Source of the DNA: a bacterium | Lineage (GTDB): Bacteria > Hinthialibacterota > Hinthialibacteria > Hinthialibacterales > Hinthialibacteraceae | Direction of reading: 5' to 3' | NCBI GenBank assembly: GCA_963662285.2 | Contig: CAXXMV010000006.1 | Location: 640,001 to 704,000, forward strand | DNA length: 64,000 nucleotides | In this document: positions 6,798 to 57,412 of the stretch, piece after piece | Layout of the letters: each line of letters opens with the position of its first letter | Numbering within the stretch: the first letter of the stretch is position 1 | Translations under genes and position numbers: made by a program | The notes under the pieces: model-generated | Told to the model about the DNA's origin: nothing | The model's input: the letters and a program-made list of their open reading frames with translations, nothing else | Databases searched by the model: none

Positions 6798-6990
6798 AAC
6801 GATAGTCAAAAATTTGTTTGTTATTATTAATTTCTATGAAAATATCAATACGGGTGCCAAGGGCAGCGTCCTTTCTGCCCTTGACGGCAAATAGAGAGGA
6901 ACTGAATAATTTCTATGATTATTTATCTTTTTTTATAGAATTTTTGAAATATGAAATATGGCTCCAACTGCTAAAGCTTTAAAGTATTTA

Positions 6991-11700: not shown

Positions 11701-11757
11701 ATGCTGATTTTTACCCAAAAGTTTGGCCAGAATTTATTGCTATGAATAGATCAATAA

Positions 11758-11953
11758 GAGTGCCAAGGGCAGCGTCCTTTCTGCCCTTGACTGAAAACCT
11801 TGGAAAAACAAAATGAATCTTGATTATTTATAATCCAATTACAGATAAATGATATGGATTTTATTCTGTCTTCAATGTGTATTGTTGATATAAACTATAG
11901 AAATACAAAGGTGAACTAAATCAAGGGCAGAAAATACACTGCCCTTGCCACCC
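11758..11953. mobile_element. MITE/REPIN-like unit (196 bp) bounded by inverted family A palindromes
   Basis: TGCCAAGGGCAGCGTCCTTTCTGCCCTTGA ... TCAAGGGCAGAAAATACACTGCCCTTGCCACCC with an AT-rich interior. Confidence 0.65.
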
Positions 11954-13944: not shown

Positions 13945-14099
13945 ATACCGCGAGTAATATATCCCGCTTATAAATGTCAAGCAACCAAGTCCCCTCTCCC
14001 CGCGGGAGTGTAAAGGCCTGGGACATGGGTAACAGGTGTTCGGGGACATAGGTAACACATTTTCTGAGTGTATTCTAGCCTTGAAAGGAGGCGAAGAAT

Positions 14100-15266
14100 A
14101 TGCCCTGGAACGAGGTGGACCTTATGTCTCTGAGAAAAGAATTCGTATTGTTGAGCCAGCAAGAAGAAAGCAACATCAGCCAATTATGTAAACGGTTTGA
14201 TATCAGCCGTAAGACGGGTTACAAATGGATCAAACGGTACAAAGAAGGAGGAGTCGAAAATCTCCAAGACCGTTCCAAAAAACCCAATACTTGCCCTCAT
14301 CAAACAGATAAGTCTATCGAGCAAGCCATTACAGAAAATCGCGAAAAAGGATGGGGAGGACGCAAAATTCGCTCTCGTCTGATTCAATTGGGATACGAAA
14401 ATGTTCCTAGCGCCAGCACTATTACTGCCGTGTTACGCCGACTGGGATTGCTGGATGAAAAGGAAAGTCACAAGCACAAAGCCTATAAGCGTTTTGAAAA
14501 AGATACGCCCAACGAATTGTGGCAAATGGATTTCAAAGGAGATTTTCCCACGCTCAAAGCACGCTGTTATCCGCTCAGCATTCTGGATGATTGCACGCGC
14601 TTTGTTCCCGGATTATTTTCGTGCGCCAATCAGCAAAGGGAAACCGTGCAAGACTCCCTGGAAAGCGTGTTCAGGATGTATGGTATGCCTCGGGCGATGT
14701 TGATGGATAACGGAAGTCCGTGGGGAGGATGCAAAACCTGCGAATACACCAGATTGACAATATGGCTGATACGATTGGGTATTCGCGTGTATCACGGTCG
14801 CCCCTACCATCCGCAAACCCAAGGCAAGGTCGAGCGATTTCACCGGACCTTTAAGCAAGAATTGCTGATAAGGGAATCGTTTGTGGATTTGGAATATTGC
14901 CAAAGGCGGTTTGATGAGTGGCGTTATGAATACAATTTTGAGCGTCCTCACGAAGCCCTGGATATGGATGTCCCGGCTAACCATTATACGTCCAGTCCTT
15001 TTGTTTATCCGGGAAGTTTGCCGGATATCGAGTACGCGCCGGGCAGCATTATCAGGAAGGTGCAACAAGGAGGTCGGGTGGCGTACCGTGGTGAAGATTA
15101 CCGGGTGAGCCGCGCCCTGGTAGGATGCCCGGTTGCCTTGAAACCCGCTATGACCGATGGGATGATGGACGTATATTTTTGCCGACAAAAAATCAAGACG
15201 CTCGATCTGCGTTTGAATGAAATCAAAGAAGATAACTTGGCAATCCAGAAAAAGGCGTCACAATAG
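14100..15266 (+). CDS. IS481-family transposase
   Basis: MPW.EV, ISRKTGYKWIKRY, WQMDFKG, DNGSPW, PQTQGKVERFHRTFKQE, YNFERPHEAL. Confidence 0.95.
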   Translation: MPWNEVDLMSLRKEFVLLSQQEESNISQLCKRFDISRKTGYKWIKRYKEGGVENLQDRSKKPNTCPHQTDKSIEQAITENREKGWGGRKIRSRLIQLGYENVPSASTITAVLRRLGLLDEKESHKHKAYKRFEKDTPNELWQMDFKGDFPTLKARCYPLSILDDCTRFVPGLFSCANQQRETVQDSLESVFRMYGMPRAMLMDNGSPWGGCKTCEYTRLTIWLIRLGIRVYHGRPYHPQTQGKVERFHRTFKQELLIRESFVDLEYCQRRFDEWRYEYNFERPHEALDMDVPANHYTSSPFVYPGSLPDIEYAPGSIIRKVQQGGRVAYRGEDYRVSRALVGCPVALKPAMTDGMMDVYFCRQKIKTLDLRLNEIKEDNLAIQKKASQ

Positions 15267-15267
15267 A

Positions 15268-15426
15268 AATTGGTTGGGCGAAACGGAAGCGGGCGCTGCA
15301 GGAGTGCAACCCGCCAGGGATAGCCGATCCGAGGTGCGAGGGATAATGCAGGAGGTGAAATATTCACCTCCTCCCTCTAAGCCAACCAATTATCCTGAGC
15401 ATCTCTAGATGCCTAAAAAAAAACTC
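15268..15426 (+). ncRNA. Candidate structured ncRNA in the IS481 3' region (family not recognised)
   Basis: Nested stems; core GAAACGGA-stem-GCAGG loop-CAA bulge-stem-AGGGATA is shared, with covariation, with 57041-57100 (minus strand). Confidence 0.6.
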
Positions 15427-15572
15427 AAACAATAACCTGGGATAAATCCCGGTTTTGATAAAAAACTGTAACCCATGTCCCCGAACATGTGTTACCCATC
15501 TACCCGGTCTGTACAGGGAGAGGGTCAGGGTGAGGGGGGAATCTCCCAACACCCTAACTAATCAATCATCTA

Positions 15573-33166: not shown

Positions 33167-33331
33167 GTCCTCTCCCCCTCCAGAAAAGGGCTAAGACAAT
33201 GTCATTAAGTTAACCGTGTTGTCCCCTCTCCCGCTGGGGTTGTAAAGGCCTGGGACATGGGTAACAGGTGTTCGGGGACATAGGTAACACATTCCCTGAG
33301 TGTATTCTAGCCTTGAAAGGAGGCGAAGAAT

Positions 33332-34498
33332 ATGCCCTGGAACGAGGTGGACCTTATGTCTCTGAGAAAAGAATTCGTATTGTTGAGCCAGCAAGAAGAA
33401 AGCAACATCAGCCAATTATGTAAACGGTTTGATATCAGCCGTAAGACGGGTTACAAATGGATCAAACGGTACAAAGAAGGAGGAGGCGAAAATCTCCAAG
33501 ACCGTTCCAAAAAACCCAATACTTGCCCTCATCAAACAGATAAGTCTATCGAGCAAGCCATTACAGAAAATCGCGAAAAAGGATGGGGAGGACGCAAAAT
33601 TCGCTCTCGTCTGATTCAATTGGGATACGAAAATGTTCCTAGCGCCAGCACTATTACTGCCGTGTTACGCCGACTGGGATTGCTGGATGAAAAGGAAAGT
33701 CACAAGCACAAAGCCTATAAGCGTTTTGAAAAAGATACGCCCAACGAATTGTGGCAAATGGATTTCAAAGGAGATTTTCCCACGCTCAAAGCACGCTGTT
33801 ATCCGCTCAGCATTCTGGATGATTGCACGCGCTTTGTTCCCGGATTATTTTCGTGCGCCAATCAGCAAAGGGAAACCGTGCAAGACTCCCTGGAAAGCGT
33901 GTTCAGGATGTATGGTATGCCTCGGGCGATGTTGATGGATAACGGAAGTCCGTGGGGAGGATGCAAAACCTGCGAATACACCAGATTGACAATATGGCTG
34001 ATACGATTGGGTATTCGCGTGTATCACGGTCGCCCCTACCATCCGCAAACCCAAGGCAAGGTCGAGCGATTTCACCGGACCTTTAAGCAAGAATTGCTGA
34101 TAAGGGAATCGTTTGTGGATTTGGAATATTGCCAAAGGCGGTTTGATGAGTGGCGTTATGAATACAATTTTGAGCGTCCTCACGAAGCCCTGGATATGGA
34201 TGTCCCGGCTAACCATTATACGTCCAGTCCTTTTGTTTATCCGGGAAGTTTGCCGGATATCGAGTACGCGCCGGGCAGCATTATCAGGAAGGTGCAACAA
34301 GGAGGTCGGGTGGCGTACCGTGGTGAAGATTACCGGGTGAGCCGCGCCCTGGTAGGATGCCCGGTTGCCTTGAAACCCGCTATGACCGATGGGATGATGG
34401 ACGTATATTTTTGCCGACAAAAAATCAAGACGCTCGATCTGCGTTTGAATGAAATCAAAGAAGATAACTTGGCAATCCAGAAAAAGGCGTCACAATAG
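33332..34498 (+). CDS. IS481-family transposase
   Basis: Same as 14100-15266 except EGGVEN to EGGGEN. Confidence 0.95.
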   Translation: MPWNEVDLMSLRKEFVLLSQQEESNISQLCKRFDISRKTGYKWIKRYKEGGGENLQDRSKKPNTCPHQTDKSIEQAITENREKGWGGRKIRSRLIQLGYENVPSASTITAVLRRLGLLDEKESHKHKAYKRFEKDTPNELWQMDFKGDFPTLKARCYPLSILDDCTRFVPGLFSCANQQRETVQDSLESVFRMYGMPRAMLMDNGSPWGGCKTCEYTRLTIWLIRLGIRVYHGRPYHPQTQGKVERFHRTFKQELLIRESFVDLEYCQRRFDEWRYEYNFERPHEALDMDVPANHYTSSPFVYPGSLPDIEYAPGSIIRKVQQGGRVAYRGEDYRVSRALVGCPVALKPAMTDGMMDVYFCRQKIKTLDLRLNEIKEDNLAIQKKASQ

Positions 34499-34499
34499 A

Positions 34500-34658
34500 A
34501 ATTGGTTGGGCGAAACGGAAGCGGGCGCTGCAGGAGTGCAACCCGCCAGGGATAGCCGATCCGAGGTGCGAGGGATAATGCAGGAGGTGAAATATTCACC
34601 TCCTCCCTCTAAGCCAACCAATTATCCTGAGCATCTCTAGATGCCTAAAAAAAAACTC
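34500..34658 (+). ncRNA. Candidate structured ncRNA, copy of 15268-15426
   Basis: Same sequence within the duplicated IS. Confidence 0.6.
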
Positions 34659-34811
34659 AAACAATAACCTGGGATAAATCCCGGTTTTGATAAAAAACTG
34701 TAACCCATGTCCCCGAACATGTGTTACCCATCTACCCGGTCTGTACAGGGGTTAGGGTGAGGGGGATATACAAAAACAACATAACTTAATAACATTAGAA
34801 ATAGGTGATGT

Positions 34812-55390: not shown

Positions 55391-55578
55391 TGTATGATTA
55401 AAGTGTTTTCAAGAACTAAGTCTAAACGATCTAAATGTCTATGTATCATAACCCCTCTCCCCCAAGCCTGGGGGAGAATTCAAGTGTATGAACCGGGCAC
55501 ATCCTTTACAGAATAAACCGGGCACATGGTTTACACAAGTCGATACTAAGAACCGACCAGAAGAAAGGAGTCGGTTCG

Positions 55579-56790
55579 ATGACTTGGAAGGAAAACAGTG
55601 CCATGGATGCAAGAATGAAATTTATTGCGGATGTCCTCCGCAAAGAAGACACACTAAGCGCCTTATGCCAAGCATATGGCATTAGTAGACCAACCGGATA
55701 TAAATGGATCAAGCGCTATCAGGAAGACGGTCCTGGTGGATTGGAGGAGCGATCCCGGGCGCCCCATACCCAAGCACTAGCCGTTTCTAAAGAGACCGAA
55801 AAAGAAGTGAAGGCTATGCGAAAAAAGTTTCCGCACTACGGTCCTAAAAAATTACGGGTGGAACTGAAAAAAAAGGATGCGACGAAGCACTGGTCGGCAA
55901 CCAGTACGATTGGCGAGATACTAAAACGCAAAAATCTGATTGTCAGCCGCAAGCAAAAAGATCGCGCCAAACCAAGTGGTGAAGCGTTAACCGAATTCGA
56001 CCAAGTGAACCGCGTATGGTGCGCGGATTTCAAAGGAGATTTTCTAACGGGAGACGAACATCGATGTTTCCCTTTAACCGTATCGGAAGGGGCTAGCCGC
56101 TATTTACTCTGCTGCCAAGGCATGCAAGAAACCAATGGCGCATTGGTACGCGTAATTTTCGAGCAGATTTTTCGCGAGTATGGTTTACCAGAAGTCATTC
56201 GAACGGATAACGGGGCGCCCTTTGCGTCGACCGGAATCGGAGGGTTAACCAAATTATCCGTGTGGTGGATAAAACTGAGAATTTATCCAGAACGAATCCA
56301 GCCGGGTCGGCCTCAACAAAATGGCCGTCATGAGCGAATTCACCGGACCTTGAAAGCAGAGGCCATTTCTCCACCAGCGCCAACGCTGCGTGAACAACAA
56401 AAACGTTTTGATCAATTTCAAAAAGTGTACAACGAAGAGCGGCCTCATGAGAGTTTGGGACAACGACCTCCCGCGCAGTTGTATCAACCCTCGCCGCGCG
56501 TCTATTCAGGTAAAGCGCCGAATTGGGAGTATCCAGAGACCATGCAGGTGCGCCAAGTGAAAACCCATGGTGAAATCAGTTGGCGAAGCAAGCATTGGTA
56601 TTTGGGGGAAGCTTTGGGAGGTGAATTGGTGGGACTAGAGGAATTGGAAGAGAATAATTGGCGCATTAGTTTGGGTAACGTGATTCTCGGTTGGTTGAAT
56701 ATGTCAAAAGGTGAGGTGGTGCGTGAATTGTCTTTGAGACGCATCAATCATCCAAAAGCAATCAGTCACCCGGCAGTATGTCCCAGGTAA
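55579..56790 (+). CDS. IS481-family transposase
   Basis: MTWKE, ISRPTGYKWIKRY, WCADFKG, DNGAPF, PQQNGRHERIHRTLK, YNEERPHESL. Confidence 0.95.
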   Translation: MTWKENSAMDARMKFIADVLRKEDTLSALCQAYGISRPTGYKWIKRYQEDGPGGLEERSRAPHTQALAVSKETEKEVKAMRKKFPHYGPKKLRVELKKKDATKHWSATSTIGEILKRKNLIVSRKQKDRAKPSGEALTEFDQVNRVWCADFKGDFLTGDEHRCFPLTVSEGASRYLLCCQGMQETNGALVRVIFEQIFREYGLPEVIRTDNGAPFASTGIGGLTKLSVWWIKLRIYPERIQPGRPQQNGRHERIHRTLKAEAISPPAPTLREQQKRFDQFQKVYNEERPHESLGQRPPAQLYQPSPRVYSGKAPNWEYPETMQVRQVKTHGEISWRSKHWYLGEALGGELVGLEELEENNWRISLGNVILGWLNMSKGEVVRELSLRRINHPKAISHPAVCPR

Positions 56791-56916
56791 AAAATGAGCT
56801 AGGGAAGTATCAAGATGATGAATAATTCAGGTATTAATTTTCCTGAGATTGAATCCAGATCGTCTCTTTTTCGAGAAAATCAAAGAGCGCACGGGTGAAA
56901 AAAAAGGTGGCAATAT

Positions 56917-57119
56917 CGGGGGCGCCGCCCCCGTACCCCCGGAGTTTTTTTAGGCATTAGCACAAACTCCAGATAGTATGCAAAAAAAAGCAAAGGGACG
57001 GTTCTAAATCCGTCCCTTTAGCGACTATCCGTCGCCCGTGCACCAGGATATCCCTTGACAGGTTGCTCTCCAGCAGAGCCTGTCTCCGTTTCTCCTGGTG
57101 ATAATAACTATCGGATAGC
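56917..57119 (-). ncRNA. Candidate structured ncRNA homologous to 15268-15426, antisense to the transposase
   Basis: Minus strand CACCAGGA-GAAACGGA-GACAGG-CTCT-GCTGG-AGAG-CAA-CCTGTC-AAGGGATA-TCCTGGTG, then a hairpin and ATGCCT-A7-CTC. Confidence 0.6.
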
Positions 57120-57329
57120 TCGAAATAATCTGTAGAAAAAGAAGTAAAAAAACAGTTCTAGCAAGTAAGCAATTCAGAATACGTTGATATACCTGAAAAC
57201 GGATTATCTCTTTAAAAAAACAGATAAGTTGCCATAATTTGCGAGACAAAAGTGTAAACCATGTGCCCGGTCTAAAGTGTAAACTATGTGCCCGGTCATT
57301 CACAAGGAGGGGGTTGATTGGTCTAAACG

Positions 57330-57368
57330 CAACCCCCCTCTAACTCCCCCCAGGCTTGGGGGGAGAAT
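57330..57368 (-). repeat. Repeat family B variant
   Basis: CAACCCCCCTCTAACTCCCCCCAGGCTTGGGGGGAGAA; similar to 23301-23335 and 55451-55478. Confidence 0.7.
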
Positions 57369-57412
57369 TCTATGTTTCAAGACTTAATAGGATGCCTATT
57401 TTATATGTCGAA

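Follow-up and report, generated by a model that had tools for sequence, protein, structure and literature searches.

Three copies of one RNA family of ~190 nucleotides (nt) are present in a 64,000-nt stretch of the genome of a Hinthialibacterota bacterium (contig CAXXMV010000006.1, positions 640,001 to 704,000), which is referred to here as the window. They are located at 15272-15457 (+), 34504-34689 (+) and 57100-56898 (-), and each lies in the non-coding tail of an IS481-type insertion sequence (IS): copies 1 and 2 in two copies of one element (“type A”), and copy 3 in a second element (“type B”). An earlier reading made from the DNA alone (the sequence-only reading) had proposed that these tails encode a conserved, covarying structured RNA of no known family. 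A larger alignment supports the first part of that proposal, and comparison with Rfam 15 supports the second. It is very probable that the module is a real structured RNA gene carried as IS cargo. The reading that we favor, with a rough probability of 0.45, is that the module is an autonomous passenger RNA gene, whose product would act as a free molecule through a conserved host partner or ligand.

Copy 2 lies 19232 nt downstream of copy 1 and matches it exactly across the 191 nt aligned. Copies 1 and 2 are on the same strand as the transposase gene of their element (co-oriented), and copy 3 is on the opposite strand, convergent with the transposase gene. The sequence-only reading had described one architecture shared by all three copies. 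They do belong to one family, although the inversion of copy 3 relative to its transposase had been missed.

Domain 1 is a conserved and covarying fold

The strings quoted in the sequence-only reading are present at 15268-15426 (+) for copy 1 and at 57100-57041 (-) for copy 3. A pattern made from the parts that it described as conserved matches the window three times, compared with 0.04 matches expected, and none of 100 shuffled sequences reached three matches. Copies from outside the phylum were found using a pattern that fixes GAAACGGA, GCNGG, YAA and AGGGATA, and that leaves the helices, the −10 box, the 3' box and the pseudoknot free. De-duplication left a working set of 124 distinct module copies, from which 54 copies less than ~85% alike were drawn for the analysis of covariation.

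Domain 1 of the family runs, in order, through helix P1 (7 base pairs, bp), GAAACGGA, helix P2 (5-6 bp), a 3-nt bulge, helix P3, a single A, the returning strand of P2 (P2'), the sequence (R)AGGGAUA and the returning strand of P1 (P1'). The wide alignment, together with RNAfold, gives P3 as UGCN/NGCA closing a GGNN tetraloop. Domain 1 of copy 1 (15272-15329, +), which was assigned from sequence, fold and covariation, follows this order, with P1, GAAACGGA, P2, a CGC bulge, P3 (TGCA-GGAG-TGCA), A, P2', AGGGATA and P1'. Domain 1 of copy 3 (57041-57100, -) is in antisense orientation to the type B transposase gene and has a fold z-score of −4.9.

Across the 54 copies, 96.1% of the cells in the domain 1 helices are paired, compared with 75.1% in shuffled alignments. 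Double changes account for 176 cells, compared with 44.5 in shuffled alignments, and the observed value was not reached in any of 500 shuffles. Controls in which the register was slid pair at no more than 44%. The closing pair of P3 covaries, being UA in 31 copies, GC in 14, AU in 7 and CG in 1. The sequence-only reading had claimed three stems with compensatory changes. P1 and P2 do covary in the 54 copies, but the third stem, given as CGCT/AGTG in one copy versus CTCT/AGAG in the other, was drawn in the wrong register. The alignment contains 69 G-U cells and 16 A-C cells, such that the complementary strand would pair worse, in agreement with the strand originally named as the RNA.

One feature of domain 1 is particular to type A, where P1 is unusually weak (GGUUGG/CCGAUC, with two wobbles). 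A perfect 10-bp pairing between AATTGGTTGG and CCAACCAATT (15268-15277 with 15382-15391) is found only in this element and would compete with both P1 and the returning strand of P5, a helix of domain 2. This pairing could be an alternative fold or could be due to chance; the type A copies are 99-100% alike, and hence offer no covariation for it.

Beyond a second domain, the 3' tail pairs with domain 1 in a pseudoknot

Domain 2 consists of the long-range helices P4 and P5, which enclose a variable hairpin, P6, the sole part of the module that varies freely between elements. The domain falls into four subfamilies whose helix sequences are unrelated and whose consensus fold is the same. When the 24 nt past domain 1 are paired with the 25 nt before the 3' box, the mean energy is −18.8 kcal/mol for strands of the same copy, compared with −10.0 kcal/mol (standard deviation 4.0) for strands taken from different copies. 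The cognate strand is the best partner in 25 of the 54 copies, and ranks among the top five in 47. The 3' box itself, AUGCCU-N(1-3)-A(4-9), is found in 92 of the 124 copies and is seen in a logo of 91 of them; it typically lies 82-100 nt past domain 1. It is not a conserved reading frame: codon 3 is a stop in most copies, and elsewhere the frames are longer and dissimilar.

The three bases that follow the A-run of the 3' box pair with the GGNN tetraloop of P3, forming a pseudoknot that bridges at least 100 nt. Loop and tail change together, with GGAG facing CUC in 18 of 18 copies, GGCG facing CGC in 9 of 9, GGGA facing UCC in 50 of 51 and GGGG facing CCC in 11 of 12. The 3-bp pseudoknot is fully Watson-Crick in 88 of the 92 copies with a 3' box; 10000 shuffles gave a mean of 34.3 copies and a maximum of 50. 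Since the type of tetraloop switches within single domain-2 subfamilies, the loop-tail changes represent repeated compensatory events. The sequence-only reading had instead placed ATGCCT-A(n)-CTC inside a conserved stem, which does not hold: the CTC pairs with the tetraloop of domain 1.

In copy 1, the consensus folds place domain 2 at 15331-15405 (+), with P4 as GAGGTGC/GCATCTC and P5 as GGGATAAT/ATTATCC around P6 (15350-15375). The 3' box (15409-15426, +) reads ATGCCT, A9 and then the tail CTC (15424-15426), the partner of the tetraloop GGAG (15301-15304). In copy 3, domain 2 spans 56961-57040 (-), with P4 as CACGGGC/GTTTGTG and P5 as CGGATAGT/ACTATCTG, and the 3' box (56942-56957, -) reads ATGCCT, A7 and a CTC tail that pairs with the tetraloop GGAG.

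Predicted promoter and terminator-like signals at the ends of the module

The upstream regions of 120 copies give a logo that reads TAnAAT at −19 to −14 relative to GAAACGGA. This is 6-7 nt before P1, the first base of which is usually G. TANNNT was found at this site in 81 of 119 copies, compared with 7 of 238 control windows. Its frequency by arrangement was 14 of 18 for copies co-oriented with a transposase gene, 11 of 19 for convergent copies and 56 of 82 for all others. The −35 region shows only a weak T-rich signal at −42/−41, and promoter boxes of the Bacteroidota type were recognized by eye in three copies. At the other end, the tail is followed by a hairpin, often with a U-run; in many copies this is a GC hairpin with a GAAG-type loop.

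In copy 1, the −10-like box CAATAG (15261-15266, +) overlaps the stop codon of the transposase gene and is a weak match. The 3' end of the copy 1 RNA, as predicted from the sequence, is likely the terminator-like hairpin CCTGGGATAAATCCCGG followed by TTTT (15437-15457, +). Copy 3 has a −10-like box, GATAGT/ATAGTT, at 57106-57112 (-), as read from the sequence and the logo. Its P6, GGGACGG...CCGTCCC followed by a T-run (56994-56982), is terminator-like. Past the RNA of copy 3 lies a GC hairpin, GGGGGTACGGGGGCGGCGCCCCCG, with a T8 run (56898-56940, -), and in several other phyla, too, a comparable hairpin comes after the tail.

Distribution of the module across phyla

The 7.29-Mb genome that contains the window was searched with a pattern and then with a covariance model of domain 1 (R1). 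Twenty-five copies of the module were found, of which 18 are in type A elements, 5 are in type B elements (all full length) and 2 are elsewhere. Of these two, one (L022) is placed downstream of an IS21 IstB gene in antisense orientation, and the other is beside ordinary open reading frames (ORFs). Among 35 species genomes of the phylum, 12 match the pattern when up to one mismatch is allowed, and the R1 model matches 18 at E ≤0.001. Copy numbers are patchy, with 0-19 R1 matches in each of the 34 relatives.

A pattern scan of one genome per species gave at least 116 matching stretches. Judging by title, the 80 matches listed comprise 38 from Acidobacteriota, 25 from Planctomycetota, 9 from Bacteroidota (including Rhodothermales) and 2 from Cloacimonadota, with one each from Verrucomicrobiales, Nitrospira, Desulfomonilaceae, Armatimonadota, a “Deltaproteobacteria” metagenome-assembled genome (MAG) and a Ramlibacter MAG. 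These 80 matches represent at least eight groups at the level of phyla, and Bacillota, Actinomycetota and Gammaproteobacteria appear to be missing from them. A link to phages was considered and rejected because just two viral contigs in the collection match.

Transposase genes and other neighbors of the module

Neighboring transposase genes were sought within ~2 kb of the module using jackhmmer seeds for IS481, IS3, IstB, IstA, ISL3 and IS110. A transposase of one of these families was found near 56 of the 124 copies, and the module is mostly at the 3' end of the transposase gene. In 26 cases the nearest transposase gene is upstream on the same strand, and its stop codon coincides with or immediately precedes the start of the RNA. 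In 22 cases the nearest gene is downstream on the opposite strand, and 8 cases have another arrangement; the three ISL3 cases are divergent from the module. Pfam confirmed IS481, IS3-type rve, IstB/IS21, IS110 and ISL3 as carrier families, with IS110-family genes near 7 of the 124 copies. Pfam counts for 148 neighboring ORFs were 13 for rve, 11 for rve_3, 5 for IstB and 2 each for ISL3, IS1595, IS110 and DDE_Tnp_1; among the 25 most frequent families, no non-transposase family occurred more than three times. An all-against-all clustering of the neighboring ORFs was swamped by spurious high-GC frames and was left out of the counts. Other copies adjoin ordinary genes, such as those for an oxidoreductase, an aldehyde dehydrogenase, a response regulator, RlmN, a WD40 protein and a peptidase. 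The description of the module as an IS481 feature is correct for the carriers in the window and too narrow for the family as a whole. The sole other IS481-type homologue in the phylum (L167, in a related genome, 45% identical) lacks the module.

Several “solo” copies proved, by tblastn, to have the remains of a broken transposase gene upstream; in others the shared part is limited to the final 18 codons, and these are domain 1 itself. In an acidobacterial lineage (L053, L065, L086, L098, L109, L118 and L128), the frame of an rve transposase enters domain 1 by 36 nt and stops at the TGA in ..CTGAGGGATA, such that its last ~12 codons share bases with the 5' half of the RNA. A right-end-like sequence (TGARCC..ACA) is shared by 36 copies, which end in it. 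The possibility that copies without a transposase are miniature inverted-repeat transposable elements was explored by seeking an inverted partner up to 2.6 kb upstream, with at most 4 mismatches in 16: no clear short element was found, and convincing partners are present only at the distance of a full element, ~1560-1630 bp (L071, L108, L109, L126 and L146). The true solo copies may be decayed elements, miniature derivatives or free genes.

Two further features were observed near individual copies. In Planctomycetaceae bacterium SH139, the one complete isolate genome among the matches, a hammerhead ribozyme of type II (49.4 bits; gathering score 37) is located ~2.5 kb away from the module, at L116:3119-3186 (-). 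In the “Deltaproteobacteria” MAG, a gene for a group II intron reverse transcriptase/maturase (L119:5163-6671, -) is convergent with the module.

Comparison with known RNA classes

None of the 4227 models of Rfam 15 matched anywhere in the window at the gathering threshold of its family. At 16 loci of other phyla, Rfam matches were limited to one tRNA and one hammerhead, both elsewhere than at the module. With permissive E-values, three regions gave weak, unrelated Rfam matches (E ≥0.12), none of them over domain 1. The HEARO model and those for small self-cleaving ribozymes (hammerhead, twister, twister-sister, pistol, hatchet, HDV-like and hairpin) did not match at the module. A literature search gave no description of the RNA, where the motifs of PMC2864571 were compared by their entries in Table 1 of that paper rather than by alignments. 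That table lists motifs that are outside Rfam, namely Solibacter-1, Rhodopirellula-1, Soil-1 and Transposase-resistance, and an earlier uncatalogued motif of this kind (e.g., Solibacter-1 or Rhodopirellula-1) may cover part of the module RNA. As far as our searches show, an RNA fold common to five transposase families in both orientations is without precedent in the literature searched.

The bridge RNA (seekRNA) of IS110/IS1111 elements is described as a structured non-coding RNA encoded at a non-coding IS end (PMC11208160, PMC11208158). The module is of similar size and is likewise found in the non-coding end of IS elements. However, a bridge RNA serves one recombinase family, whereas the module is associated with IS481, IS3, IS21, IS110 and ISL3 elements in both orientations. 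Bridge RNAs are restricted to DEDD/IS110 elements; the carriers in the window are of the IS481 type, and the module is not tied to IS110 and is therefore not a bridge RNA by association. Contrary to what guide loops would show, the internal loops of domain 1 hardly vary between elements that have different ends. No sign that the loops are programmable guides was found, and the sole variable helix showed no enrichment of complementarity to the one target assessed, the start region of the transposase gene. The omega RNAs of TnpB/IscB are represented by sense-overlapping transcripts of IS1341-type genes (PMC4615843). The acidobacterial modules resemble them in starting inside the 3' end of a transposase gene and running toward the element end, but the module has no linked TnpB/IscB among the 25 most frequent Pfam families of its neighbors, which are DDE/DEDD transposases or ordinary genes. 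In addition, about half of the copies (22 of the 56 linked to a transposase) face the element interior, and their 3' end cannot therefore carry a guide derived from the flank. Together, these two differences indicate that the module is not an omega RNA.

A closer parallel is provided by Ssr9, a small RNA gene of ISPpu9 in Pseudomonas putida that lies downstream of the gene for the transposase in some copies of the element and has extra copies elsewhere in the genome (PMC8450116, PMC12288879). Such a small RNA gene behind a transposase is the closest parallel for a modular RNA cargo. Compared by description only, Ssr9 belongs to one IS110-family element of one species, whereas the module is found in at least eight phylum-level groups. 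IS10 encodes RNA-OUT, a small RNA with its own promoter. The art200 RNA of IS200 is also an element-encoded small RNA with its own promoter (PMC4513863). These antisense regulators overlap the 5' end of the transposase message, whereas the module is at the 3' tail and on the sense strand in 26 of 56 cases. The module also has a conserved tertiary fold that plain antisense pairing of the RNA-OUT or art200 kind does not need.

The preQ1 and ZTP riboswitch aptamers are pseudoknotted RNAs with an A-rich strand or a variable linker. The module is similar in that a loop pairs with a downstream tail after an A-run, and in that two conserved parts are joined by a variable insert; it differs in that no Rfam riboswitch model matches it. 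While an aptamer-grade conserved fold with covariation and a tertiary pairing is present, as in a riboswitch, coherent downstream genes are not. What lies downstream is the antisense strand of a transposase gene, the end of an element, or unrelated genes.

Proposed function

We propose that the module is a self-contained gene for a structured RNA, carried as cargo in the tail of an IS and comprising a −10 box, domain 1, domain 2, the 3' box, the pseudoknot and the 3' hairpin. Given that the unit keeps its own start and stop signals in either orientation, and with any transposase, its RNA would act as a free molecule, apart from the transposase message. In H-type pseudoknots, an A-run lies in a helix groove. 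The A-run of the module would probably lie in the groove of the invariant P3 helix, such that P3, the A-run with the pseudoknot, and the near-invariant loops would form a compact core. This core would bind something that is conserved across phyla, be it a host protein, an RNA machine or a small molecule, and the binding would change the tolerance of the host for the element or the expression of the element.

A more tentative suggestion, which we regard as possible but doubtful, is that the module represents a new functional RNA class (ligand-sensing, catalytic or a decoy for a universal host machine) that has been captured repeatedly by at least five unrelated IS families and has spread across phyla. 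If this is true, the module would serve transposable elements in general as an accessory RNA, acting via the host rather than via any one transposase. To our knowledge, every known kind of transposon RNA (antisense regulators, omega RNAs and bridge RNAs) is dedicated to a single cognate protein or message. The module has conservation of riboswitch or ribozyme grade and a long-range pseudoknot, yet travels in either orientation with five transposase families in little-studied groups of bacteria. If it binds a host factor or metabolite, mobile elements would have a transposase-independent way to manipulate or sense their hosts, and a widespread RNA class would be absent from present catalogues.

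Several points weigh against an autonomous passenger gene with the long fold as its product. The invariance of GAAACGGA, GCNGG, YAA and AGGGATA is partly by construction, because the retrieval pattern fixes these segments, and many of the copies are related, such that the counts exceed the number of independent events. The promoter and the RNA ends are predictions from sequence. Where the hairpin inside domain 2 is terminator-like, it would end the RNA ahead of the 3' box and the pseudoknot, and some lineages (L025, L073, L092, L104, L070 and L160) hold only domain 1, a hairpin and a terminator. Because of these internal terminators and domain-1-only lineages, the long fold may not be the sole active form. 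Lastly, the overlap of the transposase frame with domain 1 in the acidobacterial lineage would also fit a cis role on the transposase message.

Alternative explanations

A cis role could take the form of a sensor, specifically a riboswitch-like attenuator in which domain 1 sets the level of read-through of the domain-2 hairpin. In convergent copies, read-through would yield antisense RNA over the transposase gene; in co-oriented copies, it would exit the right end of the element and, in a circular or tandem intermediate, enter the transposase gene. The IS families that carry the module transpose via circular intermediates, as would suit this model. A terminator-like hairpin inside domain 2 is present in 10 of 19 copies that are convergent, compared with 2 of 18 that are co-oriented (Fisher p = 0.013, the copies not being independent), and in three subfamilies a local hairpin competes, as judged by eye, with the long-range helix P5. 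The module resembles known aptamers in combining a pseudoknot with conserved loops that a variable linker connects. However, because the pseudoknot partner is transcribed after the hairpin, the complete fold would come too late for the decision. Type A has a separate hairpin past the tail, also terminator-like, with no visible competing pairing, and the neighbors of the module include no coherent set of downstream genes. We therefore consider an attenuator unlikely, although it is the strongest of the alternatives. It is improbable that the module is a self-cleaving ribozyme, one that would trim transcripts at the element's tail. Small ribozymes are often present in multiple copies, linked to mobile elements, and compact and conserved in fold. 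The module is likewise multi-copy and linked to mobile elements in both orientations, with a compact fold, near-invariant unpaired nucleotides and a pseudoknot. No ribozyme model of Rfam 15 matches it, though, and no cleavage site can be named. In addition, the positioned −10 box would start the RNA at P1, and hence nothing upstream would need to be removed.

The free variation of P6 between elements, set in a conserved scaffold, would also be expected of an element-specific antisense repressor in which P6 pairs with the ribosome-binding region of the transposase message. In types A and B, P6 has two short runs that appear by eye to be complementary to the Shine-Dalgarno and start region of the same element. 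This was assessed with RNAduplex in 60-nt windows along the message for 22 elements with a single full-length transposase gene; IS3 and IS21 elements were excluded, as their first gene is not the one adjacent to the module. The best duplex is at the start region in just one of the 22 (L103) and is scattered along the gene in the others. As a general rule, antisense pairing of P6 with the start region was rejected, leaving repression of this kind with little probability. Even less probable is an RNA that guides or assists a recombinase or nuclease, akin to a bridge or omega RNA, although the position at the element end, the similar size, and the one lineage in which the module overlaps the 3' end of the transposase gene and has an internal promoter would all fit. 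The sequence-only reading had included a transposase cofactor or guide among its suggestions; such an RNA, made for one transposase, is disfavored because the module adjoins five unrelated transposase families, in either orientation, as well as ordinary genes. The proximity of IS110 in so few cases also argues against a guide, as does the 3' end of convergent copies, which faces the element interior rather than flanking DNA. Moreover, TnpB/IscB is missing from the 25 most frequent Pfam families of the 148 neighboring ORFs (98 further families lie beyond those 25). The least credible explanation, to which we give very little weight, is that the conserved entity is not RNA at all, and instead is a DNA site, a set of single-stranded DNA hairpins or a short coding region. 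Domain 1, when translated, gives a recurring peptide-like string and, in one lineage, encodes the C-terminus of the transposase. The compensatory changes with G-U on one strand point to RNA, as do the loop-tail pseudoknot across a long interval and the promoter and U-run signals on the same strand. Nor is the module a conserved coding region, because indels of 1 and 2 nt between P2' and AGGGATA shift any reading frame.

Carrier elements in the window

Copy 1 of the type A element occupies 14009-15515 (+) and is 1507 bp in length, with the RNA module in its 3' tail. Its ORF (14100-15266, +) encodes a transposase of 388 amino acids with the Pfam domains rve, rve_3, HTH_32 and LZ_Tnp_IS481. BLAST found 18 full-length copies of this stretch in the genome at 99-100% identity. 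The second copy is at 33241-34747 (+), with its transposase gene at 33332-34498 and its module at 34504-34689 (+). The type B element (55485-57302, +, ~1.82 kb) has five copies in the genome and encodes a transposase of 403 amino acids (55579-56790, +) with the same domains, such that both carriers have the features of the IS481 family. The two proteins are 35% identical, in keeping with the earlier description of two divergent IS481 families. Terminal inverted repeats were read at both ends of type A and type B elements. The non-coding tails, previously put at ~250 and ~510 nt, measure ~249 nt in type A (from the stop at 15266 to the IS end at 15515) and ~512 nt in type B (from the stop at 56790 to the end at ~57302).

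Contigs from two public sequencing runs of one sample join position 14000 to 15517 via GCCA, which is the empty-site form of the type A element. The depth at this junction was 2 and 8.4, compared with ~10 for the flanks. These contigs indicate that the element is missing from part of the sampled population.

Among the five type B transposase genes, one has an in-frame TAA (G000:C6:136668-137729, L189). The type B element of the window is flanked by a palindrome-containing repeat of ~65-70 nt with CCCCAAGCCTGGGG, at 57305-57373 and, as a similar sequence, at 55440-55484. BLAST found ~60 copies of this repeat at 85-100% identity across contigs. The IS elements of the window seem to lie in or next to a repeat like the repetitive extragenic palindromic class. 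The type A flanks (13989-14008 and 15516-15545) have similar C-rich and G-rich arms. Elsewhere in the window, a 66-nt direct repeat that contains the GC hairpin GGGCAGCGTCCTTTCTGCCC is present in two copies, 88% alike and 4.9 kb apart, at 6826-6891 and 11732-11797.

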